Shown here: piece by piece, positions 4,245 to 47,785 of the stretch
Layout: each line of letters begins with the position of its first letter
Position numbering within the stretch: the first letter of the stretch is position 1
From: Candidatus Staskawiczbacteria bacterium
Lineage (GTDB): Bacteria; Patescibacteriota; Minisyncoccia; Minisyncoccales; Staskawiczbacteraceae
Reading direction: 5' to 3'
Assembly: GCA_963756225.1 (NCBI GenBank)
Contig: CAVWMZ010000003.1
Span: 275,988-339,987, forward strand
Length of the DNA: 64,000 bases
The notes under the pieces: generated by a model
Database searches by the model: none
What the model was told of the DNA's origin: nothing
What the model saw: the letters and a program-made list of their open reading frames with translations, nothing else
Translations under genes and position numbers: made by a program

Positions 4245-4463
4245 CTTTATGAAAAAACAAAAAAGAATTTCTACCCTAGTCGGCATAATGATTATTGTCG
4301 TCGCAGTGATTATTCTATTTGGTGGAACCTTCACATATCAATATTTTGCGATAAAAACTTTGCCTACGCAAAATAATCAAATTAACCAAATTGTGCAACC
4401 TGTTTCCGAAGGATGTAAATTACTGCCCTATACCGGGAAGGTGCCTCTTAACCAATTAGAATA

Positions 4464-5228
4464 GGCTCTAGACTAGCAAGACTAGTCAAAGTAGCCGATT
4501 AATTTAATAATATTTTTTAATAATTTTCCACAATTCCTTTTTCATTGTATCATTTGTTTTTCCGTAGCGCCACTCCGACTCTTTAAGATGCAGTTCGAAA
4601 TTCTTTTTTACACCATTAAATTTAGCCAGTCGACGTTTGGTGAAGCTCCAGAAATTTTCAATGCCGTTGATGTGAATACCTGTACCTTTCCTTGCAAATT
4701 CATTGTCTCCGTGATTAACCCTGAAATGTTTGTCGTATCCTACATCAACAAGTCCGTCATAGCTACGCCAGCTGTCCGAATAAATTACTGCTGATTTATC
4801 TACTTTCCCTCTGATAATGCTTTGCAGAATGTCTTTTTTGCAGTTAGGGACGATTTCTGTGTAAACATGTCCGTTGCGTTTCAGTATTCCGAACACCGGT
4901 TGCTTCTGCGTGCCTCGTCCGCGTTTCAGCTTGCCGTGAAATCCGCGTTTGCGCCTTGCTCCAAAATATGATTCGTCCACTTCCGCTTCACCGAAAATCT
5001 TTTCGAATTCTTTGTGCTGATGAGCATAAATTGCCACACGAAATCTGTTGTACCAGTAATTTATCGTGTTGCGATTTACGCCCACCAGAGGAGCTGCTTT
5101 GGAGGCGTTAATATCCAAACAAAAGTGTTCAATAATTTTTTTAATTTTAAATGTCGATAATTTAGATTTTTTGAGACTATTTACTAACATTTTGTCATTA
5201 TACCATGACAGACTGCTAGTCTAGAGCC
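4464..5228 (-). mobile_element. IS1595-family insertion sequence (765 bp)
   Basis: Terminal inverted repeats GGCTCTAGACTAGCA are perfect over 15 bp, at 4464-4478 and as reverse complement at 5214-5228. Direct repeats TAGAATA lie at 4457-4463 and 5229-5235. There is a single transposase ORF inside. Confidence 0.85.
4504..5190 (-). CDS. IS1595-family (ISXO2-like) DDE transposase
   Basis: 228 aa with an N-terminal HTH-like region (…NRNTINYWYNRFR…). The DDE region reads AEVDESYFG…KQPVFGILKRNGHVYTEIVP…IYSDSWRSYDGLVDVGYDKHFRVNH…HINGIENFWSFTKRRL, characteristic of the family. Confidence 0.85.
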   Translation of the reverse strand: MLVNSLKKSKLSTFKIKKIIEHFCLDINASKAAPLVGVNRNTINYWYNRFRVAIYAHQHKEFEKIFGEAEVDESYFGARRKRGFHGKLKRGRGTQKQPVFGILKRNGHVYTEIVPNCKKDILQSIIRGKVDKSAVIYSDSWRSYDGLVDVGYDKHFRVNHGDNEFARKGTGIHINGIENFWSFTKRRLAKFNGVKKNFELHLKESEWRYGKTNDTMKKELWKIIKKYY

Positions 5229-5943
5229 TAGAATATTATGTTAAGGGCGACGAAGATTTTCGCGGAGGCATGATTTGTAGATTTATAGTTAATCCAAAGC
5301 TTCCAATTTTTACTTTTAAGTTTATTGGCCAAGAGGATAACACTTTCGGAGACTTACAAATTACTGAAGGGAATAACCCAAATATAATTCAAGCTATTGG
5401 CAGTGGCATTGATCCAAACGCTATTGCACCAGCTACTGCTCAAGATGTTCTCGGACTTCCTGATATGAACTTTGATGGGTATAATGATTTATCTATTTTA
5501 AATAACTGCGGAGCTACTGGTAACTGCAACTATGACATATGGTTGTATAATCCTCAAAAAAATATATTTGTTGAAAATGATGATTTATCTAATGTAACGA
5601 ACCCAACGCCCGACCCGACTGCAAAAACAATCTCGTCGACTTATAATTGGGGCGCGAGCGGATACGAACAGGACACGTATAAATTTGACGCAAATGAAAA
5701 ATTATTTTTAACGAATGCATACAGACAAGAGGCCGTAGGAGATGGCTCGTCCTGCAAAGAAACTACTAGCGATTTGGTTAATGGAAAAATGATGACAACA
5801 ACAAAAATTGTTGATTGCACAAACTAATAATTTTAAAAAAATAAATAATCCGCAAAGCTAAGAATATACGGCTATACGAAAGCGCTGGAGAAATCCAACT
5901 TTTTGGCATATTCGTACTCATTCAAATCTCTGCGGACAAATAA

Positions 5944-8079
5944 ATGGCAGTAAAAGATACGTTCGAGATAAAAGTGGGCGAAAAGCCCGTCATAATTAAA
6001 ACTACAAACTGGACAGAGCAAGCATCTGGATCTTGTTTGGTTTCGCAAGGAGAAACGGAAGTTCTAGTAACAGCTGTTTTATCCCCTTTCACAAGAGAAG
6101 GAATCGATTATTTCCCGCTAACAGTTGAATATGAGGAAAGATTTTATGCAGCAGGAAAAATTTATGGCTCAAGATTTGTAAGAAGAGAAAGCAGGCCAAC
6201 AGATGAAGCAATCTTAACTGCCAGAATGATTGACCGAGCGATAAGGCCGTTATTTCCAAAAGATTTTAAAAAAGAAGTTCAGGTTATTGTCACCTGCCTT
6301 TCTTGGGACGGAGAAAATGATCCTGATATTCTAGGAATGATTGGTGCGTCATTTGCTTTAGCGACTTCCAATATTCCTTGGAACGGACCTTTGGGGGCAA
6401 TAAGAGTTACCAGAAATAATGGAGAGTGGGTTTTTAATTCTAATTATGCGCAAAGAAAAGAATGCGACATGGATTTAACTTTGTCGGCAATCGAAAGAGA
6501 CGGAGATATTTTGGTTAACATGATTGAAATGGGAGCAAAAGAAGTTTCAGAAAAAGATGTTATGGACGCTTATGGGGCCGCTAAAAAAGAATTGAAAAAA
6601 ATTATTGATGCACAACTTCACGCAGTTAAAAAAATAGGAAAAGAGAAAGATGTTTTTGAACCGGCCGTTGAATTGGATCTTGCAGGGGAGATTAAAGAAT
6701 TTTTAGGTGATAGGTTGGAAAAAGCAATAAGTAATGCTCCAAAAGGAGAAAAAAATCTGGGGGCCACCGAATTATTAAAAATGGAATTAATTGGACATTT
6801 AACATTAAAGTATCCCGGAGAAGGAAAAGAAAAACAAGTTTTAGCTTTTTTTGAGAGAGAAATAGAAAAAATAATTGTCAAAAATATAATTGAAAGAGAT
6901 TATAGGCCAGACGGCAGAAAATCTACCGAGATAAGACCTTTATCTTGCGAGGTTGGAGTCTTGCCGAGAGCTCACGGATCAGGAGTATTTTTTAGAGGGT
7001 TAACAAGAGTGCTTTCTGTTTTAACTTTGGGCGGACCAGCTGATTCGCAAATAATTGAAGGCATGGAAATTGTTGGCAAGAAAAGATTTATGCATCATTA
7101 TAACTTCCCTCCGTTTTCTTCTGGGGAAACCTCTCCAATGAGAGGACCAAAAAGAAGAGAAATTGGACATGGAGCATTAGTTGAAAAAGCATTATTGCCA
7201 GTAATTCCTGAGCTAGAAAAATTTCCGTACACGATTAGAATTGTTTCTGAGGTTGTGTCTTCAAACGGATCTACCTCGCAAGCTTCTGTTTGCGCTTCAT
7301 GCATTGCATTAATGGATGCTGGCGTACCAATAAAAGAACCCGTTGCTGGAATTTCAGTTGGCCTAGCAAAAGACGAAGAAACAAAAAAATATAAAGTACT
7401 AACAGATATTCAAGGACCCGAAGACCATTATGGCGATATGGATTTTAAAGTTGCAGGAACCCGCAATGGAATTACAGCAATTCAAATGGATATTAAGATA
7501 GACGGTATTGATTCTAAAATAATGGAAGAGGCAATGGACCGAGCAAAAGATGCAAGATTAAAAATACTTGATATAATAAAGAAACAGATAGCTGAACCAA
7601 GAAAAGAGTTGTCGCCCTATGCTCCTAAAATATCTACACTCAAAATTAGTCCCGCTAAAATTGGCGAAGTTATCGGTCCTAAGGGTTCTGTGATAAATAA
7701 AATAATTGAAGAGTGCGGGGTTACTATTGATGTTGAGGACGACGGATTTGTTTCTGTAACCGGAGTAGACGCCGAGGGCGTTGAAAAAGCGGTAAACTGG
7801 ATTAAAGGAATTGTTAGAGAAGTTGAAGTTGGAGAAACATTTCAAGGCAAAGTTGTAAAAATTATGGATTTTGGAGCTTTCGTTGAAATATTACCAGGAA
7901 CTGACGGCATGGTGCACATCTCAAAATTTGTGCCGTCTCGCATACAAAGCGTTTCTGAAGTTGTGAAAGAGGGAGATATAATCCCAGTTAAAGTTATGTC
8001 TGTAGACGAACTTGGCAGAATAAACTTATCAGCGCTAGATGCGGGTTTTAAACCAAAACCAAAAAACGAAAAAAGATAA
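5944..8079 (+). CDS. pnp: Polyribonucleotide nucleotidyltransferase (PNPase)
   Basis: 711 aa with two RNase PH domains (…RPDGR…IRPLSCEVG…), then KH (IGEVIGPKGSVINKI) and S1 (GKVVKIMDFGAFVEILPGTDGMVHISK) domains. Confidence 0.95.
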   Translation: MAVKDTFEIKVGEKPVIIKTTNWTEQASGSCLVSQGETEVLVTAVLSPFTREGIDYFPLTVEYEERFYAAGKIYGSRFVRRESRPTDEAILTARMIDRAIRPLFPKDFKKEVQVIVTCLSWDGENDPDILGMIGASFALATSNIPWNGPLGAIRVTRNNGEWVFNSNYAQRKECDMDLTLSAIERDGDILVNMIEMGAKEVSEKDVMDAYGAAKKELKKIIDAQLHAVKKIGKEKDVFEPAVELDLAGEIKEFLGDRLEKAISNAPKGEKNLGATELLKMELIGHLTLKYPGEGKEKQVLAFFEREIEKIIVKNIIERDYRPDGRKSTEIRPLSCEVGVLPRAHGSGVFFRGLTRVLSVLTLGGPADSQIIEGMEIVGKKRFMHHYNFPPFSSGETSPMRGPKRREIGHGALVEKALLPVIPELEKFPYTIRIVSEVVSSNGSTSQASVCASCIALMDAGVPIKEPVAGISVGLAKDEETKKYKVLTDIQGPEDHYGDMDFKVAGTRNGITAIQMDIKIDGIDSKIMEEAMDRAKDARLKILDIIKKQIAEPRKELSPYAPKISTLKISPAKIGEVIGPKGSVINKIIEECGVTIDVEDDGFVSVTGVDAEGVEKAVNWIKGIVREVEVGETFQGKVVKIMDFGAFVEILPGTDGMVHISKFVPSRIQSVSEVVKEGDIIPVKVMSVDELGRINLSALDAGFKPKPKNEKR

Positions 8080-8082
8080 AAA

Positions 8083-8108
8083 ATATGAATTGCTGAAGCA
8101 ATTCATAT
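8083..8108 (+). terminator. Perfect hairpin downstream of pnp
   Basis: ATATGAATTGC-tgaa-GCAATTCATAT has an 11-bp stem. There is no strong T-tract, so its role as a terminator is tentative. Confidence 0.35.
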
Positions 8109-8175
8109 AATCACTTCGCTCGGTCGGAGTGAAAATAAATTTTCCCTCTTCCCTCGTTAATAATTATAAAAAATT

Positions 8176-9012
8176 ATGAAACAGCAATCAACAAAATTAT
8201 TTTTTGTTATTTTATTATTAGTTGTATTTATTGTTCCATCGGTGGCACTCGCAGCTTGGTGGAATCCCCTATCGTGGAATTGGAATATTTTTAATTGGTT
8301 TTCAGGGAATCAAATCTCCATGGTTCAAACAAATCAAAACATAACCCAACAAGCAAATGATAATAAACCCGCTTGCGTTCCAGAAAATGGGCGCTATGCA
8401 GCTCCCGAAACTAGCGCAGATTTATGCTGCGACGGGCTGGTTCAACAACCCGACCCTCAAAGCCAAAGTGGCACAACGGGCACCTGCGTAAAACCGGGCA
8501 ACCAAACCACTGGTTGGAAAACGTATACAAATACTAAATATGGATTTTTATTTCAATATCCCAATAACTACGGACTTTATTCAAGGCTGAGTGACACCGA
8601 TTTATCTGTGGCAAATATTTTATCTCCAATCGCTTCAGATTCTGAGTATATTTATTTAGCAAAATCAGGATCGACTGGTCAAAACTTTACTAATGCTATT
8701 TTACACATAGAGGTTGATCCAATAGATGATATATCTCATAGAAATATTGACAGCTTTGAAGCTTCGGTAAAACAAATTGATCAATCAAATTTAAGATTAG
8801 GACAAATATCGGTTCTTCCTCAATATAGTCGATTTAAAACAGACTCTGGTGAAGACGTGTTTTCGGCTGGAAATTTATCCGATGGAATTCAATACTATCT
8901 TGTGAAAAATGACAAATTAATTGTGATAGAACCAGCAGATCATTCACCACTCCAAAAGAATGACGAAATTGCTATTCAAAATTTAATTAAAACTATTAAA
9001 TTTACGAAATAA
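8176..9012 (+). CDS. Secreted hypothetical protein
   Basis: 278-aa ORF with an N-terminal signal/TM segment (LFFVILLLVVFIVPSVALA). No family recognised. Confidence 0.5.
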   Translation: MKQQSTKLFFVILLLVVFIVPSVALAAWWNPLSWNWNIFNWFSGNQISMVQTNQNITQQANDNKPACVPENGRYAAPETSADLCCDGLVQQPDPQSQSGTTGTCVKPGNQTTGWKTYTNTKYGFLFQYPNNYGLYSRLSDTDLSVANILSPIASDSEYIYLAKSGSTGQNFTNAILHIEVDPIDDISHRNIDSFEASVKQIDQSNLRLGQISVLPQYSRFKTDSGEDVFSAGNLSDGIQYYLVKNDKLIVIEPADHSPLQKNDEIAIQNLIKTIKFTK

Positions 9013-9030
9013 TTAGTATGATTACTAATC

Positions 9031-10089
9031 ATGCCAACTGAAGACGAAGAAATACAAGCTAAAGAATTTCTAAAACGCGCCGAAATTAGAACAATGAAAA
9101 AGGACCTTCTGGCCCTTAGAGAGGTTGATGCCCTAAAAGAGAGAGACAAAATTGTTAAATTAAAAACACTAGAAGAACAATTAGAAGAAAAAAAGAAAGC
9201 CGACGAATCGGCCGTCGGACAAGCCGAGGCAGAAAAGGCCGGGAGAGAAGAGGTTTTATCAAAAAATGAAGGGCAGGAAACGATAGCTGAAAAAGATTTA
9301 AAAAAATATGCCAACGAGCAGGAGCGCCAGCAAATATTTTTATTTGAGTCTCAGCGTCTTGGTTTTGAAAAACAGGTTGATGCAATTGATAAAGAGAAGG
9401 ATCCCGCATTAAAACTAGAAAAAAACAAACTACTATTACAGAAACGTGATTTGCAAATAAAATTAAACTCTGTCTTAACAGATGAGAAGAAACTTGAAGA
9501 TGAACAAAAATTTATTGTTGATAAAGAAAAAACAACCACTATTCCCACCCAAAGAAAAGGCCTAGAACAATCAAGGTGGGATTTAGAAGAAAAAATAAAA
9601 GAGATAGAGAAAAAAAGATGGGCGGCAGAAAAGGCAATACAAGACTTAGATGATAGGGCGTCCCAAATAGATAAATCATCCGAGGGACTTGTAGTAGAAA
9701 AAAATATACTACGAGATAAAATTTTAGGCGCAGATAAATCATTACGAGAAATTTATTCGATTATCGTTAATAGAGAAGAAGAAAAGAGGAAGGGTTTGGC
9801 CGCAGAACAATTAGCCAAAAAAGCAACTGTGGCGAAAATAAGAGAAACAGAAAAAGAAAAAGTTCAAAGAGAACAATGGTCTCCGATAACTATCGCAAGG
9901 AAACAAGCGACCACCTTCAGTGGAGGAAATATAAATAATGTTCCAAAACCCGCAAGAGACAAATTTTTAACATCTTCTGGCAAAGAAGAGGAGGATAGAA
10001 AAAAATTCTTACGCGATGTAGAAAATTGGGACCAGAAAAAAGAAGGCCCACTCGTTAAAGAAGTGCCCGTGCCACCTAAAAAAATATAA
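9031..10089 (+). CDS. Lys/Glu-rich coiled-coil hypothetical protein
   Basis: 352-aa ORF with highly charged, heptad-like composition. The antisense ORFs in the track are composition artefacts. Confidence 0.5.
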   Translation: MPTEDEEIQAKEFLKRAEIRTMKKDLLALREVDALKERDKIVKLKTLEEQLEEKKKADESAVGQAEAEKAGREEVLSKNEGQETIAEKDLKKYANEQERQQIFLFESQRLGFEKQVDAIDKEKDPALKLEKNKLLLQKRDLQIKLNSVLTDEKKLEDEQKFIVDKEKTTTIPTQRKGLEQSRWDLEEKIKEIEKKRWAAEKAIQDLDDRASQIDKSSEGLVVEKNILRDKILGADKSLREIYSIIVNREEEKRKGLAAEQLAKKATVAKIRETEKEKVQREQWSPITIARKQATTFSGGNINNVPKPARDKFLTSSGKEEEDRKKFLRDVENWDQKKEGPLVKEVPVPPKKI

Positions 10090-10099
10090 CAAAAAACAT

Positions 10100-10460
10100 A
10101 TGGATAAAAAAATAATCGACAAGTTAAAAGTAAAATTAGAAGAAGAAAAAAAATCAATTCAAGAAGAATTGAGAAGTTTTGCGACTGAAGATCCAAATTT
10201 AAAGCACAATTGGGATACAAAATATCCCAACAGAGAAGATGATGACAAAGACGAGGCAGCAGACGACCTCCAAGAATACGACAACAAGCTTGTCTTTGGA
10301 ATATAGTTTTGAATTAAAACTTAAAGATATAAATATGGCTTTAGAGAAGATAGAAAAAGGAACGTATGGAATCTGTGAAAAATGCGGTAAAAAAATTGAT
10401 GAAGAAAGGCTAGTTGCCTGCCCCGAAGCAAAGACTTGTCTAAAATGCAACTCTAAATAA
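10100..10460 (+). CDS. DksA/TraR-type C4 zinc-finger protein, apparent frameshift near 10285-10300
   Basis: The N-terminal part (10100-10306) and the C-terminal part (frame of 10239-10460) together give …LQEYDNKL/SLEYSFELKLKDINMALEKIEKGTYGICEKCGKKIDEERLVACPEAKTCLKC. This is the DksA/TraR C-terminal zinc ribbon. Confidence 0.6.
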
Positions 10461-10485
10461 TAACCTACTTATTAATATTTTTTTA

Positions 10486-10515
10486 AAAACCGGACCTAGT
10501 TTCGGTTTTTTATTT
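10486..10515 (+). terminator. Rho-independent terminator after the DksA-like gene
   Basis: AAAACCG-loop-CGGTTTT followed by a T-run. Confidence 0.5.
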
Positions 10516-10520
10516 TTCTA

Positions 10521-10549
10521 TTGACAATAATAAAGCGATATTGTAATTT
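10521..10549 (+). promoter_or_regulatory. Sigma70-like promoter in front of the high-GC islet
   Basis: TTGACA (10521-10526), a 17-nt spacer, then TAATTT (10544-10549). Confidence 0.4.
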
Positions 10550-10613
10550 ATAGTATCGCCTGCTATTTAACAATTTCGTGAACCAACAGCCAACAGAAAG
10601 CGAGGATAAGACT

Positions 10614-10910
10614 ATGGAAACGACAGAAAGAAAGATTGCAGCCGCCGGAAATATCCCGAATAAGCCTTGCGTATATCTGTTCAGCGAACCAGACAAAGAA
10701 ATCCTCCGAGGAGACGGCACGGGACTCGTGCGTAGCGGGACCTTGCGACTTCTTTTGGAGAAAAATTTTGGAAAGGACGTGTTAGATGGCGGAAACCGGT
10801 TCAGCGAACCAGACAAAGAAATCCTCCGAGGAGACGGCACGGGACTCGTGCGTAGCGGGACCTTGCGACTTCTTTTGGAGAAAAATTTTGGAAAGGACGT
10901 GTTAAAATGA
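10614..10910 (+). CDS. Hypothetical protein containing an exact tandem 40-aa repeat
   Basis: ATG at 10614 is preceded by GAGGA. The product contains FSEPDKEILRGDGTGLVRSGTLRLLLEKNFGKDVL twice. The strand choice is uncertain because an antisense ORF (10496-10840) also exists. Confidence 0.4.
   Translation: METTERKIAAAGNIPNKPCVYLFSEPDKEILRGDGTGLVRSGTLRLLLEKNFGKDVLDGGNRFSEPDKEILRGDGTGLVRSGTLRLLLEKNFGKDVLK
10679..10904 (+). repeat. Perfect 106-bp direct repeat, two copies, 120-bp period
   Basis: 10679-10784 and 10799-10904 are identical base for base by visual alignment of lines 10681-10784 and 10801-10904. Confidence 0.9.
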
Positions 10911-11006
10911 ACACAAAACTAATAAGACAGTTTTACGTAGACGTTATCTGTCCCATACCCGTAATTCCATTTATTTTTCTCAACTTCTTTTTACCCCCGC
11001 AAATTT

Positions 11007-11333
11007 ATGCGCACAGAAACGACAATGCCCCAAGAGCATCTTGATAAAAAGGTCAACGAATTCGGTGCATATCTTGATGCCGAGCTGGCGGTACTAGATG
11101 CTGCAAAAAACTATCAGACCGCCCATCGACTCATCAACGAGTTACAAACGAGGGCAACGCGATTCATAGATGCGGAAATGCTCTCGCTCGATGGGCAAAG
11201 AGAGGACTACCTCAAGAGTATAGTATCTGTCGTACAGCGAGCGGATGAATATTCCGCGCGAGATGACTCCCTGCCACAGGAAATTGGTGCGAGATTACAA
11301 GGCCTATCAAGGCACATTCTCACATTAATGTAG
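11007..11333 (+). CDS. Hypothetical protein (high-GC islet)
   Basis: 108-aa ORF with much higher G+C than its surroundings. No family recognised. Confidence 0.4.
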   Translation: MRTETTMPQEHLDKKVNEFGAYLDAELAVLDAAKNYQTAHRLINELQTRATRFIDAEMLSLDGQREDYLKSIVSVVQRADEYSARDDSLPQEIGARLQGLSRHILTLM

Positions 11334-11417
11334 GGATTTACGTTCGGGCCCGTGATACGTCGTGGGCCTTTTTTATTTACAAAAAAATTTGGTATAATAA
11401 ATAAAATAAAGTATTAT

Positions 11418-12947
11418 ATGCCTTCAAAAGTTTTCTCTGGAGCTATAAATGGATTGGACGCGCAATTAGTAGAGGTGGAAATAGATGTATCGCAAGGATT
11501 GCGCTCATTTTCTATTGTAGGTTTGCCCGATAAGGCGGTAAAAGAATCAGAAGAGAGGGTTGATTCGGCAATAAAAAGCACAAAATTATTATCACCTCAT
11601 AGCAGAACTTTTAAAGTTTTAGTAAATCTAGCCCCAGCTGACTTAAAAAAAGAAGGCTCTATTTATGATCTGCCAATTGCTTTGGCTTTTTTAATTGCAT
11701 CAAAACAAACTATTTTTAATGTTTCTGATAAAATATTTATAGGCGAACTTTCTTTAGATGGGAAATTGCGCCCGATAAAAGGCGCGCTATCTTTTGCTCT
11801 AATGGCAAAAAAGCTAGGCGTTAAAGAAATTATTTTGCCAAAACAAAATGCAAAAGAGGCCAGCCTAATAAAAGAGGTAAAGGTTGTAGGCATAAATTCG
11901 CTATCAGAAGCTTTGGCTTATTTAGAACACAGAATACAAATTCAGGGAACAGAATTTAGAGAAGATACTATTTTAAACTCCTCCAATCAGGCATCAGAAC
12001 AGATTGATATCAGTTGGGTGAAAGGGCAAGAATATGCAAAAAGAGCACTCGAGATTACAGCTGCTGGCAGCCATAATCTTTTTATGTTTGGACCTCCTGG
12101 CGGAGGAAAAAGCCTGTTAGCGAAAGCGTTGCCTTCTATCCTGCCAAAACTAAATTTTGCAGAATCTTTAGAGGTTACAAAAATTTACAGTATCGCTGGT
12201 CTTCTGCCAGAAAATACGGCTATTATAAATTTTAGACCATTTCGTTCTCCCCACCACATTTCTTCTGAAGTTGCTCTAATCGGTGGAGGAAGTCCGCCAA
12301 GACCCGGAGAAATAACATTAGCCCATCGTGGAGTTCTATTTTTAGATGAGTTCCCAGAATTTCATAGAGATGTTTTAGAATCTTTGCGTCAGCCGATTGA
12401 AGAGGGGAAAATAACTGTCTCGAGGGCAAAAAATACTTTTACCTTTCCTTCACGATTTATGCTTATAGCAGCGTCAAACCCATGTCCTTGCGGATATTTT
12501 AACGATCCAGAAAAAAACTGCACCTGCTCACCTTCTCAGGTTTCGATGTATAGAAGAAAAATGTCAGGACCCTTAATGGACAGAATTGATTTATTTATTG
12601 AAGTACCAGCAGTAAAATATGAAAAGCTAACTTCCGACTCTGTTGAAAACCAAAGTCAAAACGTTAGGGGAAAAATTGAAAAAGCCCGAGAAAAGCAAAA
12701 GGCCAGATTTATCAACGGCAATATTTTAACAAACTCTGAAATGAACATTCCTGAAATAAAAAAATACTGCGAACACGATGATAAATCACAAAACCTTTTG
12801 AAGAAATACGTTGACTCAGGGAAATTATCAGCCAGAGGATATCACAGAATTTTAAAAGTAGCCCGAACAATTGCCGACCTAGCCGATTCTGACAAAATTC
12901 AATATGAACATATTGCCGAAGCGCTGATGTATCGGGTTAGGGAGTAA
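11418..12947 (+). CDS. comM: YifB/ComM family Mg-chelatase-like AAA ATPase
   Basis: N-terminal Lon-like domain (VEVEIDVSQGLRSFSIVGLPDKAVKESEERV), Walker A GPPGGGKS, and VLFLDEFPEF…MDRIDL…, typical of the family. A TGGTATAAT extended -10 lies at 11390-11398. Confidence 0.85.
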   Translation: MPSKVFSGAINGLDAQLVEVEIDVSQGLRSFSIVGLPDKAVKESEERVDSAIKSTKLLSPHSRTFKVLVNLAPADLKKEGSIYDLPIALAFLIASKQTIFNVSDKIFIGELSLDGKLRPIKGALSFALMAKKLGVKEIILPKQNAKEASLIKEVKVVGINSLSEALAYLEHRIQIQGTEFREDTILNSSNQASEQIDISWVKGQEYAKRALEITAAGSHNLFMFGPPGGGKSLLAKALPSILPKLNFAESLEVTKIYSIAGLLPENTAIINFRPFRSPHHISSEVALIGGGSPPRPGEITLAHRGVLFLDEFPEFHRDVLESLRQPIEEGKITVSRAKNTFTFPSRFMLIAASNPCPCGYFNDPEKNCTCSPSQVSMYRRKMSGPLMDRIDLFIEVPAVKYEKLTSDSVENQSQNVRGKIEKAREKQKARFINGNILTNSEMNIPEIKKYCEHDDKSQNLLKKYVDSGKLSARGYHRILKVARTIADLADSDKIQYEHIAEALMYRVRE

Positions 12948-12961
12948 AAAAATAAATAATA

Positions 12962-12996
12962 AAAAACAGCCCGAATTTTATCGAGGCTGTTTTTTA
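12962..12996. terminator. Bidirectional terminator between convergent comM and the M23 peptidase gene
   Basis: AACAGCC-loop-GGCTGTT flanked by an A-run and a T-run. Confidence 0.6.
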
Positions 12997-13002
12997 TTTA
13001 TA

Positions 13003-14142
13003 TTAATAACTTATTTTTGTTCCTACGGGGAATCTTGCTAAAGGATTTACAGCTCCTATAACTTCGAAGTGAACATGGCATCCGGTTGCATCTCCAGTTC
13101 TGCCCATCAATCCTATAGTGTCTCCAACAGTAACTTTGTCTCCAGGTTTTACATAAACATACTCAAAGTGACCATAATAGGTGACGGTGCCATTTCCATG
13201 CAAAATTGTAACATAGTTTCCTTTGCCCAAATTCCAAGCATTATTAAATACGGCTCTTTGAACCACGCCGGAAGCTGCAGCATGAACTGGCGTGCCGCAT
13301 TTATTGGCAAGGTCAATGGCATTATAATAATGAAGCCCCTGGGTGATATCTCCTTCTGCCGGGTAAATAAAATAATTATTAGCTAAAGGAATTTGGTTAT
13401 TACTTATTGGCGCTGGTGCAGCATTTTTTGGCATTACTCCTCCAGGCACTATTAAAATATCGCCAATATAAATATCGTCTTGGTTTGCTAAATCATTAAA
13501 AGAAATTACGTCTTCTGCTTGCGCCTTATATTTTGCAGCAATGGCCGACATGGTGTCTCCAGATTTTACAAGATGCAAAACGCCATCTACCGGCAAGATC
13601 GTTAAACTCTGGCCGGCTTTTACCGCAGAAGAACTTGTTAGCTGGTTTGCCCAGGCTATGGTGTTAACGGATATATTATAAGAATCTGCAATTGATTTCA
13701 ATGTATCTCCAGGCTGAACAATATAGTTAGTTATATCTTTTTGGGTCTGGTTGGTTCCGCCAAACACGTCTCCCAAGGTTTTAGCAGATATAGCGCATGG
13801 CGTTGATACTGCACAAAGCGTATTGTCCTGCATTGTTTTTAATTCTGGAGTTTCTAATTGAATCGCATTTGCTTGGCTAAAAAATAAACTGTCTCCACTA
13901 GGAGCACCAGACTTATCAAAAAAAGAATTAAAAAATACGATATGACTTGAAGCTAGGCCACCCATATTAGCCGGGCTGTCGCAAGACGCATACATTCCCC
14001 AAAACAAGATGACAGAAACTAACCCGAAAAAAAATAGGGGTTTTTTAAATAACCTCTTAAAATTAGCCCCCTTTGTTGCATTTTTAGCAGAGAGCCAAGC
14101 CATTTTTATCCCTATTAAAATTCTGTTAAATATTTTTAACAA
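13003..14142 (-). CDS. LysM-domain M23 family metallopeptidase
   Basis: Two LysM repeats (YIVQPGDTLKSIADSYNISVNTIAWAN; HLVKSGDTMSAIAAKYKAQAEDVISFN). The M23 motifs are HYYNAIDLA…GNYVTILHGNGTVTYYGHF…GRTGDATGCHVHFEV. Confidence 0.85.
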   Translation of the reverse strand: MLKIFNRILIGIKMAWLSAKNATKGANFKRLFKKPLFFFGLVSVILFWGMYASCDSPANMGGLASSHIVFFNSFFDKSGAPSGDSLFFSQANAIQLETPELKTMQDNTLCAVSTPCAISAKTLGDVFGGTNQTQKDITNYIVQPGDTLKSIADSYNISVNTIAWANQLTSSSAVKAGQSLTILPVDGVLHLVKSGDTMSAIAAKYKAQAEDVISFNDLANQDDIYIGDILIVPGGVMPKNAAPAPISNNQIPLANNYFIYPAEGDITQGLHYYNAIDLANKCGTPVHAAASGVVQRAVFNNAWNLGKGNYVTILHGNGTVTYYGHFEYVYVKPGDKVTVGDTIGLMGRTGDATGCHVHFEVIGAVNPLARFPVGTKISY

Positions 14143-14207
14143 TGTAAGTCAAATTTACCATTTTAAAGACTGCCCGTCAAGCAGTTATTCACAATTAATT
14201 TTATATT

Positions 14208-14235
14208 AAAAAAAGACGCTTTTTTGAAAAGCGCC
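14208..14235 (-). terminator. Rho-independent terminator of the high-GC two-gene islet
   Basis: The minus strand reads GCGCTTTTcaaAAAAGCGTC followed by TTTTTTT. Confidence 0.6.
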
Positions 14236-14258
14236 CTAACTTAGCTCAAAATTTCTGC

Positions 14259-15008
14259 CTATTTCCTAGTAAAGGACATCTTGGGAAGCGGCATAGAAAA
14301 AACCTGATTTTGTTGCGGCTCCACAATAGGCGCGGTTGATTCCAGGAATCTATTCTGCGAGACGGTGCGAGGCACAACTACATTAGGCGATGCTACTATG
14401 GGCGCTTCCTTGCGTTGCACCGCGATAAGCGCAAGCGCTGATTTTTTTAGCCCAACAAACTGAGCTCCATTCCACACCGATCCATTGTCTAACGACACCC
14501 AAGTGTCCGGTATCTTTTTGTCTCTAACGCAATATTTCATCGTAACGCGCCAAAGCGGGTTTGCGCTGTCTCTGTTTTGTATTTTAATTGCCACTATAAG
14601 GATGCCATCATATTCTTTGACGCTGTCAAAGGTCCACGGAGAGAATGACTCTGTTTCTCCCAGCCATTTCAAGTGAGCCGGAATTCCAAACACCCGATCC
14701 AAGGGATCCATAATGCAATAATTATATCTTTCACCAAATTCATCCCCCGAGTCGGAATAATTAAAATTCTCGATAACCGGATCTCCGGTAATGATAATCT
14801 GAAATGGCAAATTTGGATCTGCGTGCCTGTAACAACCACAACCAAACCAATGGGAAAAATAAACTCCGCTAAACGCGGCACCATTGGACAAAAATTTCCG
14901 CACACCTTGCATAATATCGTCTCTATAGGTGACAAGCTTGTCTTCCTGTTTCTGTTTTTCCAATTCTACGGCATGCTGTTCAACCTTCCTCTGCCAGCTG
15001 AACTGCAC
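14259..15008 (-). CDS. Hypothetical protein (high-GC islet)
   Basis: 249-aa ORF with a GTG start that overlaps the upstream lipoprotein gene by 29 nt. No family recognised. Confidence 0.45.
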   Translation of the reverse strand: MQFSWQRKVEQHAVELEKQKQEDKLVTYRDDIMQGVRKFLSNGAAFSGVYFSHWFGCGCYRHADPNLPFQIIITGDPVIENFNYSDSGDEFGERYNYCIMDPLDRVFGIPAHLKWLGETESFSPWTFDSVKEYDGILIVAIKIQNRDSANPLWRVTMKYCVRDKKIPDTWVSLDNGSVWNGAQFVGLKKSALALIAVQRKEAPIVASPNVVVPRTVSQNRFLESTAPIVEPQQNQVFSMPLPKMSFTRK

Positions 15009-15444
15009 GTTGCCGAGCCTGTTCCGCTTCTTGAGCGGCGTGTTCTTTGTCGCGATATTCTTTCAACCGCTCGGGCAATAGATATACCTCCTTCGTATCA
15101 GACTGGCGTATGCCTTCTGGCAAAATATCGTAATAAGACACCGAGGTCTCCATGCCCCTCCTAACAATTCTCAGCCTATTATCATCCCTCGTATATTCCT
15201 CAAGGCGGATTTCGGAGTTCATCTTGAACTCACATTCAGTTTCTGATATCAATGTTATAGTAAATCCATATTTTGGGTTGGTAAAAACGACTTTCTGAAA
15301 AACGTTCTTTTTCTCGGGAATAGCCTGGAGGGCATTCTCTTTCTCTGAAATAGGGGGCACTGATCCGCTCCGACTACAAGAAACAAAAAAACAAACCGCG
15401 GCACCAAACATCAACAAGCATGCTTTTCTGCAATATCTCTTCAT
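14980..15444 (-). CDS. Putative lipoprotein (high-GC islet)
   Basis: MKRYCRKACLLMFGAAVCFFVSCSRSG is a signal peptide with a lipobox-like FVSC. The start is taken as the internal ATG at 15444. Confidence 0.5.
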   Translation of the reverse strand: MKRYCRKACLLMFGAAVCFFVSCSRSGSVPPISEKENALQAIPEKKNVFQKVVFTNPKYGFTITLISETECEFKMNSEIRLEEYTRDDNRLRIVRRGMETSVSYYDILPEGIRQSDTKEVYLLPERLKEYRDKEHAAQEAEQARQRAVQLAEEG

Positions 15445-15686
15445 GTCTTGCTCCTTTCTTAGAAACAAATTTTCAATGCTGAAAATGGCCTGCTAGCTGC
15501 ATGCCACATTATTCCCAGCGAACTAATTTAATTGTGCTACTCCGACACCATAATGTCAAGTCTTCGCCCCACAAATTTGAGTTTTTAATTAAAATTTAAT
15601 GTAATCGAAGCTCTACTATAAAAAATTTACCGCTGGGTAAAGACTTGAACTTATTACCAAATTTTAAACTATGCTATAATATTCTA

Positions 15687-16514
15687 ATGGATTTAACTTC
15701 TCCAACTACAATAAAAAATATTTCTTCGAAATATGACACCAAACCATCAAAAGGATTGGGACAAAATTTTTTAATAGACAAAAATGTTTTGAGAAAAATA
15801 ATTGAGGCTTCGGATATAAAATCAAGCGACACTATTTTAGAAGTGGGGCCGGGCATTGGGACTTTAACTCAAGAATTGGCAGAAAAAGCAGAACGCATTA
15901 TCGCGGTTGAAAAAAGTAAAACAATGATTGAGATATTAAAAGAAACTGTAAAAGATTATAAAAATATAGAAGTTATTGATGAAGATATATTAAAATTTGA
16001 ATCGGAAATTACAAACTACAAATTAATTGCGAACATCCCTTATTATTTAACATCTCCTTTAATCAGAAAGTTTTTAGAGACAAACAATCCTCCAGAATTT
16101 ATGGTTTTAATGCTCCAGAAAGAAGTGGCACAAAGAATATGCGCCAAGCCGTCGGACATGAGCTTATTGGCAGTATCTGTGCAATTTTATGCAGAAGCTA
16201 AAATTATAAGCTACGTCTCAAAAAATTGTTTTTGGCCAGCGCCAAAAATTGATTCTGCAATAATAAAAATTACGCCGCTAATTGATAAAAATAAAAAACA
16301 AATTGACATAGATTTATTTTTTAAAGTTGTGAAAGCCGGATTTTCGCAACCCAGAAAACAACTAGGCAATAATTTATCAAAAATATTAAAAATTGAAAGA
16401 AAAAAAATTGACGAATGGCTATTAAAAAATAACCTGAAGTCAAACCAGCGGGCCGAAACACTATCAACTGAAGATTGGAAAAAATTGTCAGAAAATTTTC
16501 CCTTTTTGGCATAA
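15687..16514 (+). CDS. rsmA: 16S rRNA (adenine1518/1519-N6)-dimethyltransferase
   Basis: …KPSKGLGQNFLIDKNVLRKII…ILEVGPGIGTLTQEL…IANIPYYLTSP… are KsgA/RsmA motifs. ATG 15687 lies 6 nt after a TGCTATAAT extended -10 (15672-15680). Confidence 0.9.
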   Translation: MDLTSPTTIKNISSKYDTKPSKGLGQNFLIDKNVLRKIIEASDIKSSDTILEVGPGIGTLTQELAEKAERIIAVEKSKTMIEILKETVKDYKNIEVIDEDILKFESEITNYKLIANIPYYLTSPLIRKFLETNNPPEFMVLMLQKEVAQRICAKPSDMSLLAVSVQFYAEAKIISYVSKNCFWPAPKIDSAIIKITPLIDKNKKQIDIDLFFKVVKAGFSQPRKQLGNNLSKILKIERKKIDEWLLKNNLKSNQRAETLSTEDWKKLSENFPFLA

Positions 16515-16657
16515 TTTTAATTTCTTTAAAACGCTTGACAATATACTTACCAATATATCATAATAAATATAGCCGTTAGAAATAATCTGGCAAAGCAACG
16601 GGTAGCCTATCTCTAACATTGAAAATTTAGATCCATAAATCCAGAAAGGAACAAAAA

Positions 16658-16948
16658 ATGAGCACTATATCGTCGCCGCATTTGTCTGAAATAGAAAGAA
16701 AGTCTTTGATTGCCGAAGAGATGGACAAGAAACGCGTCAGCAACAAAACGATCGCTATTGTGGTTATATCGTTGACTGTTCTAGTTATTTTTATTTTTGC
16801 CTTTGTTATACCGATAATTGAGAAACAGGCTGTTGAAGATGCCAATAAGGCAAAAGCACAAGAAGTAAACCAACTGTTAAATTCTTCGCAAGAAGGAGTC
16901 AACCAATTCATAAATCACAAAGCTACCTACAACCCACACAACAAATAA
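16658..16948 (+). CDS. Small membrane hypothetical protein
   Basis: 96-aa ORF with one TM helix. A TTGACA-N17-TCATAA promoter-like sequence lies at 16535-16563. Confidence 0.4.
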   Translation: MSTISSPHLSEIERKSLIAEEMDKKRVSNKTIAIVVISLTVLVIFIFAFVIPIIEKQAVEDANKAKAQEVNQLLNSSQEGVNQFINHKATYNPHNK

Positions 16949-17025
16949 TAAACACTATCGCTTAAGGCTAGGCAAAATGCTCTCAAATAATTTCTTGAGG
17001 GCTCTTTTTTTACAAAAAAAATTTT

Positions 17026-47358: not shown

Positions 47359-47785
47359 ATATTCTGCTTAATATCAATATTTTTTTTCTTAAATATGGGG
47401 CTCTTTTTACACTCTATAATAAAATCTTCAGCATCCATTTTGTTTCAAATTTTGTGTTAATTATTTTTTTACTTAACTTAAACTTATTTATGCCTGCTTA
47501 CGTTTTCTACTTTATCCTGCTACTTTTTCGGCTAATTTTCAAGCTTCGGGGTGTTCATTTCCAAAAATTTGTTATATGATAAATCAACAATTTAATATGA
47601 GTTACGGCCTAAACCTTTGAAAGAAATTTCAGTGGCATGGTCATTTATCACATAGAGCTTAAAGATCCCATCATCAGGATCGCTCAATGCGTCATACGTG
47701 GAAACGCGTATGTGACCGCAAGGTCAAACTGGTGGTGGGCTTTTTGTTTATGCCACCAGAATCATAAAATTAACTTGTAAAATTT

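Follow-up and report, generated by a model that had tools for sequence, protein, structure and literature searches.

Juhala and Hendrix reportedly described, as phage 'morons', additional transcription units that differ in base composition, bring a promoter and terminator of their own and lie between genes that are adjacent in relatives; Oliveira, Touchon and Rocha are said to have described hot spots of transfer between core genes that contain no mobility genes. In Patescibacteria, genomic islands and transfers have been reported to occur mostly between Patescibacteria, with competence as a likely route (PMC12455944). The present analysis concerns a small G+C-rich insert between a dksA-like gene and comM in a Candidatus Staskawiczbacteria bacterium (assembly GCA_963756225.1), found within a stretch of 64,000 nucleotides of contig CAVWMZ010000003.1 (positions 275,988 to 339,987, forward strand). 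This whole stretch is referred to as the window, and coordinates are those of the window unless another locus is named. The insert (10516–11378) is probably a horizontally acquired, self-contained accessory transcription unit, consisting of a promoter, a first open reading frame (ORF1), possibly ORF2, ORF3 and a terminator, which was gained after the split from the closest sequenced congeners.

Like the islands of PMC12455944, the insert resides in an ultra-small host, is atypical in composition, has no function assigned and has relatives only on Patescibacteria-like contigs, and DNA uptake is proposed in both cases; unlike them, it is far smaller (863 nt) than typical island-predictor calls, and the evidence is slot-by-slot synteny rather than a tree or island software. 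It resembles a moron in being such an extra unit, although its promoter is putative (a perfect -35 element but a -10 element, TAATTT, that matches TATAAT at three of six positions) while its terminator is clear; the initial annotation had called this promoter canonical, which holds for the TTGACA element and not for the -10. Unlike a moron, the block is situated in the chromosome between housekeeping genes and not in a phage or prophage; no PHROG hit was obtained below E = 0.004, no match was found in the phage database or among viral contigs, and blastn produced no match to indicate a phage or plasmid origin. As in the transfer hot spots, one interval between conserved genes holds different cargo or none (four of nine genomes filled), with no integrase or transposase, but the scale here is one to three small genes and nine genomes were surveyed. 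The block has two properties of a genomic islet: atypical composition and codon usage, and absence from close relatives whose flanks are collinear.

Two other kinds of element were considered and rejected. There was no attC-like site to suggest an integron cassette and the genome's single tyrosine recombinase is on another contig; unlike most integron cassettes, the block also carries its own promoter. An insertion sequence (IS), miniature inverted-repeat transposable element or transposon was rejected on the grounds that there were no terminal inverted repeats and no transposase domain, and that the insert is single-copy in its genome.

The dksA-comM interval in related genomes

ComM could be identified in 24 of the 25 congeners, and the eight closest of these (ComM 77–91% identical) all kept the order of a coiled-coil gene, the dksA-like gene and comM. 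When 10 kb of the window (7000–17000) was compared with the five closest genomes (G022, G018, G019, G023 and G007), the regions 9027–10464 and 11408–14214 matched at 69–81% nucleotide identity, while the DNA between them (10465–11407) had no match save for a single 63-nt hit (11349–11411) to an unrelated contig of G019. No second copy of the block was present in its own genome, nor was there a match by DNA among 40 relatives, or for ORF3 by protein among 78 family genomes. By the initial annotation, its reading would fail if related genomes all carried the segment with host-like codon usage; none of the relatives carried it. The interval was then compared across nine syntenic genomes, including the window genome (G000), as follows:

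G023, 53 nt: empty
G019, 65 nt: empty
G010, 85 nt: empty
G022, 108 nt: empty
G015, 136 nt: empty
G018, 334 nt: a small AT-rich ORF
G007, 997 nt: an ORF of 311 aa and native composition, which separates comM from its promoter
G017, 1403 nt: an unrelated gene for a lipoprotein-like protein of 383 aa, with a G+C of 0.50 (0.59 at third positions) and a TTGACA promoter and terminator of its own
G000 (window), 958 nt: the block described here

The slot was therefore filled in four of nine genomes, with cargos unrelated to one another, while the five empty sites shared one tidy terminator-promoter layout. Since four of nine genomes carry different cargo, the gap between dksA and comM is a variable slot and the block, on this comparative evidence, a lineage-specific insertion. 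The proposal of a non-native insertion of atypical composition was thus borne out by the alignment of the flanks, but not the block, in five congeners and by the empty slot in five of eight syntenic relatives; the description 'foreign' needs qualification, as the likely donor was of Patescibacteria type and not a distant high-GC organism. The G017 cargo (L014:1539–2933, minus strand) had a lipobox-like LAPICGCGS motif, a Gln/Glu-rich coiled-coil middle and no Pfam match. A second islet was seen downstream in the window (14215–15665), with two minus-strand ORFs (third-position G+C 0.46–0.48) and its own TTGACA promoter and terminator; it too had no match in the five closest relatives, where the gap between the M23 peptidase gene and rsmA was 19–118 nt.

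Most probably, DNA of another Patescibacteria-type cell was taken up and then recombined through the conserved flanks or the T-rich terminator tails; this route is proposed because there is no mobility gene, because there has been recent exchange within the genus, and because of the published account (PMC12455944). The exchange in question concerns an IS at 4449–5240. At least 11 copies with 98–99% identity to it are spread across the genome of another species, G023, where ComM shows just 85% identity and the DNA around the IS 76–82%; to judge from these identities, the IS is evidence for recent exchange of mobile elements within the genus. The donor of the block was probably another Patescibacteria-type bacterium rather than a distant high-GC organism, since the sole relatives of ORF3 lie on Patescibacteria-like contigs.

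Layout and products of the insert

The features of the insert and its borders, with the basis for each, were these:

10485–10510, plus strand: intrinsic terminator of the DksA-like gene, resident left flank (terminator scan; equivalent hairpin and T-tail after dksA in relatives)
10506–10515, no strand: TTTTTTATTT, left copy of the bracketing 10-nt direct repeat (read from the sequence)
10516–11378, plus strand: whole insert, 863 nt (flanks match the five closest relatives and the insert does not; interval survey)
10516–10600: AT-rich start of the insert, holding the promoter-like site and a palindrome (sequence; G+C windows)
10521–10549, plus strand: promoter-like site, -35 TTGACA at 10521–10526, 17-nt spacer, -10 TAATTT at 10544–10549 (sequence; putative function)
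10535–10559, no strand: imperfect palindrome with 11-bp arms, overlapping the -10 (listed as a stem-loop)
10614–10910, plus strand: ORF1, 98 aa, basic, isoelectric point (pI) 8.8 (ORF list; GAGGA at 10602–10606, 7 nt upstream of the ATG)
10679–10784, plus strand: ORF1 repeat, copy 1, 106 nt exact (repeat search)
10799–10904, plus strand: ORF1 repeat, copy 2, 106 nt exact (repeat search)
10907–11044, plus strand: ORF2, 45 aa, doubtful (ATG overlaps the ORF1 stop as ATGA; G+C 0.385; no family match)
about 10910–11006: AT-richer spacer holding ORF2 (G+C windows)
11007–11333, plus strand: ORF3, 108 aa, acidic, pI 5.1 (relatives; alignment; AlphaFold)
11346–11378, plus strand: the cassette's own intrinsic terminator (stem-loop 11346–11369) and T-tail, with the right copy of TTTTTTATTT at 11369–11378 (terminator scan; sequence)
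11390–11420, plus strand: resident comM promoter with extended -10 TGgTATAAT at 11390–11398, and comM ATG at 11418–11420 (sequence; comM domains; homologous promoter region in relatives)

The ORFs lie on one strand, with a complete terminator upstream and another at the end of the cassette, and the comM promoter is intact. Transcription would start at about 10556 from the TTGACA promoter, giving a bicistronic mRNA that would end at the cassette's own terminator; this terminator would leave the expression of dksA and comM intact. The initial annotation had placed the islet at 10516–11350, ending just before the comM promoter; the block does end before that promoter, but the cassette terminator had been left outside and the block extends to 11378. 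The promoter-like site was not listed by the consensus scan. There were 100 sites of the form TTGACA-N16-18-TAnnnT in the genome, some of which precede the most G+C-rich segments, and on this pattern the TTGACA class appears to be the host's own promoter type. The palindrome at 10535–10559 is unlikely to be a terminator because no good T-run follows it; its position over the -10 makes it a possible operator.

Excision of the 863 nt between the two TTTTTTATTT copies would leave the hairpin followed by TTTTTTATTT, ACAAAAAAATTTGGTATAAT and comM. The empty site of G019 reads hairpin, TTTTTTATTT and ATGATATAAT, and is mirrored by the excised window sequence; the empty or near-empty sites of G019 and G007 have the form stem-TTTTTTATTT(T)ATGATA(T/A)AAT. 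The sole inverted repeat reported in 10400–11450 was a 22-nt palindrome at 11309–11344. The 63-nt hit noted above (11349–11411), which covers the cassette terminator and the comM promoter region, was about 80% identical to a stretch of G019:C27 (L043:1215–1315), where it corresponded to the terminator-promoter stretch 3' of a G+C-rich threonine-synthase-like gene. A common 3' module was rejected, in that the 14-nt hairpin core of the cassette terminator was exact only in G019:C27 among the other 25 genus genomes; much of the match is a generic module of TTTTTTATTT plus the TATGATAT type, and the likeness may reflect either chance or shared origin. A boundary motif common to this islet, the second islet and the cargos of G017, G007 and G018 was likewise rejected, the only shared element being the TTGACA -35 of the host's normal promoter type; no CACAAC box was found when the islet boundaries were compared.

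ORF3 is a real gene, since it has about ten relatives with 15 invariant columns and a confident four-helix model. Two relatives were obtained by phmmer from 1.84 billion representatives, i.e., P0004 (307 aa, matching over its C-terminal 100 residues) and P0005 (135 aa), both with 32–35% identity to ORF3 in pairwise BLASTP; a profile search then added seven more (P0007–P0013, 122–206 aa). Identity across the family was 28–36%, and the invariant columns include the S and P of an SvPEDIG motif close to the C-terminal end. The longer members carry an additional domain at the N-terminus (AFKYLRAD...GPF...FGA.CS..YP), and a profile of that domain found nothing in the six frames of the islet; from the alignment, ORF3 appears to be a C-terminal-domain-only member of a very rare, uncharacterised family. 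Among 400 genomes of the class, the family was represented only by the window genome and by one N-domain-only match. AlphaFold, when supplied with the family alignment, returned a four-helix bundle (predicted local distance difference test, pLDDT, 78; predicted template-modelling score 0.68). Searches with this fold retrieved only designed helical bundles and nothing at E < 0.001, and a sequence search of the PDB gave nothing below E = 0.29.

The relatives of ORF3 occur on low-GC contigs beside pilM/N/O-like, Nramp, restriction-modification, M23 and Wzy genes, and these contigs look like Patescibacteria chromosomes. In two of the three contigs examined, L035 and L038, the relative resembled its neighbours in third-position G+C. 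At L035, the relative had a third-position G+C of 0.478 against 0.44–0.49 in adjacent genes (other genes on the contig ranged from 0.22 to 0.52), and at L038 the values were 0.232 against 0.24–0.30. At L042, the relative was about 0.1 higher than its neighbours (0.519 against 0.38–0.45), while ORF3 in the window was 0.15 above the host mean. A scan of genome contigs with the ORF3 alignment found no donor.

ORF1 contains two exact 106-nt copies in tandem, which agrees with the exact internal duplication already reported for this protein. The period is 120 nt, or 40 codons, and the repeat is in frame; the copies are separated by a 14-nt divergent linker (10785–10798). At the protein level, there are two identical 35-aa modules joined by DGGNR, the junction peptide being ...KDVLDGGNRFSEPD.... 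Compared with the 14 nt that precede copy 1, the linker agrees at just 7 positions; the repeat therefore did not arise as a plain, clean tandem duplication that then drifted at random. ORF1 returned only itself from 5.8 billion protein clusters and had no relatives in metagenome or viral contigs, so that it is a true orphan. The initial annotation had regarded both ORFs as orphans; this stands for ORF1 and fails for ORF3, with its distant relatives.

The single-sequence AlphaFold model of ORF1 was weak (pLDDT 62) and showed a helix-loop-helix in each module. Its top Foldseek matches were EF-hand or calmodulin-like, at E 0.2–0.7 and a template-modelling score of about 0.3 for a model of this quality; an EF-hand protein was rejected, as the loop DGTGLVRSGTLR lacks the 12-residue DxDxDG...E liganding pattern and there was no Pfam hit, leaving the modelled resemblance as a lead only. 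A target of a diversity-generating retroelement was rejected too, as the copies are 100% identical over 106 nt and lie in tandem within one ORF, there is no third copy, and the reverse transcriptase is 174 kb away. This gene (G000:C3:112223–112909, outside the window; RVT_1, 67 bits) is the only reverse transcriptase of the genome and unlinked to the islet; it may belong to a diversity-generating retroelement or a retron.

ORF1 would thus encode a small basic protein in which one helix-loop-helix module underwent a very recent in-frame duplication, and ORF3 a small acidic four-helix-bundle protein of a very rare, Patescibacteria-restricted family. Neither is hydrophobic, and as neither has a signal peptide or membrane helix, both are probably cytoplasmic. 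Nothing significant was found for ORF1, ORF2, ORF3 or the relatives of ORF3 in Pfam, PHROGs, PADLOC or NCBIfam, and assignment to a toxin-antitoxin or defence system was rejected for this reason, the only hints being the palindrome and the basic/acidic pairing. Because of these same hints, a small regulatory or conflict-related pair (regulator/antitoxin-like) is the best guess, though an unlikely one.

The coding status of ORF1 bears on the alternative that retains most weight, although it is judged unlikely: that only ORF3 is a real gene, in a single-gene cassette, and that the ORF1 region is a leader that is non-coding or in decay, for instance what is left of a different imported gene. The lack of relatives, whether among 5.8 billion proteins or in contigs from metagenomes and viruses, and the weak structure model, would be expected of such a leader; similarly, the block consists of two G+C-rich parts split by an AT-rich spacer, and the N-terminal domain of longer ORF3 relatives is missing, which fits a truncated import. 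Yet ORF1 has a GAGGA 7 nt before its ATG, it has the same order of codon-position G+C as ORF3 (GC1>GC3>GC2), and its repeat has a period of exactly 40 codons through which the frame stays open. Nor is the region a decayed N-domain, given that the N-domain profile was blank in all six islet frames. The related idea that ORF1 and ORF3 were one longer gene, now broken, was rejected on the same blank profile, and although the two share a frame, there are stops between them.

Base composition and the remaining alternatives

A transcription unit of two genes, acquired horizontally, is also consistent with the base composition of the block, within limits. The host genome (778,660 bp in 8 contigs) has 36.8% G+C, while the two coding parts of the block have 48–53%. 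In 200-nt windows, G+C was 0.50–0.53 at 10600–10899 and 0.475–0.50 at 11000–11299, against 0.30–0.375 in the flanks and 0.395 in the AT-richer spacer (10900–11099); the initial annotation had described the segment as richer than its flanks and had counted 36 G/C in the 60 nt at 10681–10740, and a recount returned the same figure. Across the genome, 300-nt windows had a mean G+C of 0.368 (standard deviation 0.054, 95th percentile 0.463, 99th percentile 0.517), so that the islet peak of 0.50 on this scale falls between the 95th and 99th percentiles. Its composition is moderately unusual, but not exceptional within its own genome, where it is among 92 merged segments with G+C of at least 0.48. 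Third-position G+C was 0.52 for ORF1 and 0.48 for ORF3; for comparison, 601 long ORFs had a mean of 0.328 (standard deviation 0.071, 95th percentile 0.461). The order GC1>GC3>GC2, as expected for coding DNA, was found in both.

Several points weigh against a recently gained, two-gene unit. The -10 element appears weak by its match to consensus, and ORF3 has no obvious ribosome-binding site in the preceding sequence. ORF1 is without relatives, and its apparent coding status depends on the Shine-Dalgarno sequence, codon-position G+C and the in-frame repeat. The nearest relative of ORF3 is only about 35% identical and no donor was found; the protein and its contig were each seen only once in public collections, and the junctions and the 120-nt duplication are known solely from the assembly. 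The TTTTTTATTT repeat says little about mechanism because both copies are terminator tails, and such a repeat is equally expected from two of these. Finally, lineage-specific DNA here is not generally G+C-rich; over 30 kb of mapped window its G+C was 0.385, against 0.352 for conserved DNA, and composition and novelty are therefore only loosely linked.

Differential loss, rather than gain, would explain the distribution of the block if the ancestor of the subclade had carried it and the relatives had each lost it on their own. Small genomes readily lose genes and the slot is variable, with three other genomes filled. However, the eight syntenic relatives showed no homologous remnant; the cargos of the other filled slots have no relationship to the block or to each other, third-position G+C is above the host 95th percentile, and one tidy terminator-promoter layout is common to the five empty sites. 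Differential loss is consequently considered very improbable.

An assembly artefact, with foreign reads inserted between dksA and comM through chimeric joining or a false duplication, is given slightly less credence still. The assembly is of metagenome type, in 8 contigs with 83.6% completeness, the contig and both proteins have each been seen only once, and there is a frameshift in the adjacent dksA-like gene. Nonetheless, the two flanks are collinear with those of relatives and share a single contig of 383 kb, and the insert lies between a complete resident terminator and a complete resident promoter and has a host-type promoter and terminator of its own; the same architecture occurs in the same slot in G017, which was assembled independently. 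Repeats with a 414-nt period, including exact copies of 214 nt, are resolved in the assembly too, as are several other local repeats; this suggests long reads, and makes a systematic duplication artefact less likely.

G+C-rich islands of AT-rich genomes are often RNAs, and a structured non-coding RNA gene would account for a G+C-rich block that has a promoter and terminator of its own and matches no known protein family, but it is scarcely credible here given that no Rfam family matched at gathering or relaxed thresholds, that folding z-scores were unremarkable for the whole block (-1.54 on the plus strand, +0.46 on the minus) and the repeat unit (+0.08 and +0.24) with no signal in the leader, and that ORF3 has relatives at the protein level.

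Genomic setting and significance

The insert is set among conserved genes. Its upstream neighbour is the DksA-like zinc-finger gene (Pfam zf-dskA_traR) and its downstream neighbour comM, with the M23 peptidase gene and rsmA further away. The DksA-like gene (10100–10460) is split in two frames (10100–10306 and 10239–10460) by one extra G at about 10291, relative to four relatives that each have an intact ORF of about 120 aa; this may be either a real pseudogene or an assembly error. A 278-aa, secreted-looking protein is encoded at 8176–9012 (region 8086–9026) and is not kept in relatives except for its signal-peptide region, which matches many loci in every relative; from this pattern, it looks like one of a family of variable surface proteins with a common leader. 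A LOOT RNA (Rfam RF03000) was found at 47606–47726, with 67.7 bits against a gathering score of 46.4; together with the gene content and the small size of the genome, this RNA agrees with a Patescibacteria host. Outside the window, at G000:C3:37000–42100, there is a long repeat array with a period of 207/414 nt and exact copies of up to 214 nt, which is apparently within a giant Cys/Thr/Ser-rich repeat protein gene.

A broader proposal, advanced tentatively and judged rather unlikely, is that the dksA-comM gap is one of many fixed 'slots' of Patescibacteria chromosomes, where complete promoter-ORFan-terminator units might be swapped by transformation and by recombination via conserved flanks or terminator tails without a dedicated recombinase, drawing on a phylum-specific pool of fast-evolving small genes. 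On the same tentative footing, ORF1 and ORF3 might form a new two-protein module, in which a helix-loop-helix protein with a fresh duplication would act with a four-helix-bundle partner in regulation or in host or phage conflict.

As an event, the gain of this block is an ordinary example of a kind of horizontal gene gain that is already documented, and gene exchange among Patescibacteria is the subject of PMC12455944. Its value is as a clean case of gene gain, resolved to the base pair, in ultra-small symbiotic bacteria with genomes of about 0.8 Mb: the empty site can be reconstructed, the slot has four different contents across nine genomes, and mobility genes are absent. In addition, ORF3 and its roughly ten relatives define a very rare protein family, and ORF1 catches the duplication of a protein module at 100% nucleotide identity. 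If it is true that similar islets in Patescibacteria share one mechanism, then loci such as this would be the place to work that mechanism out.

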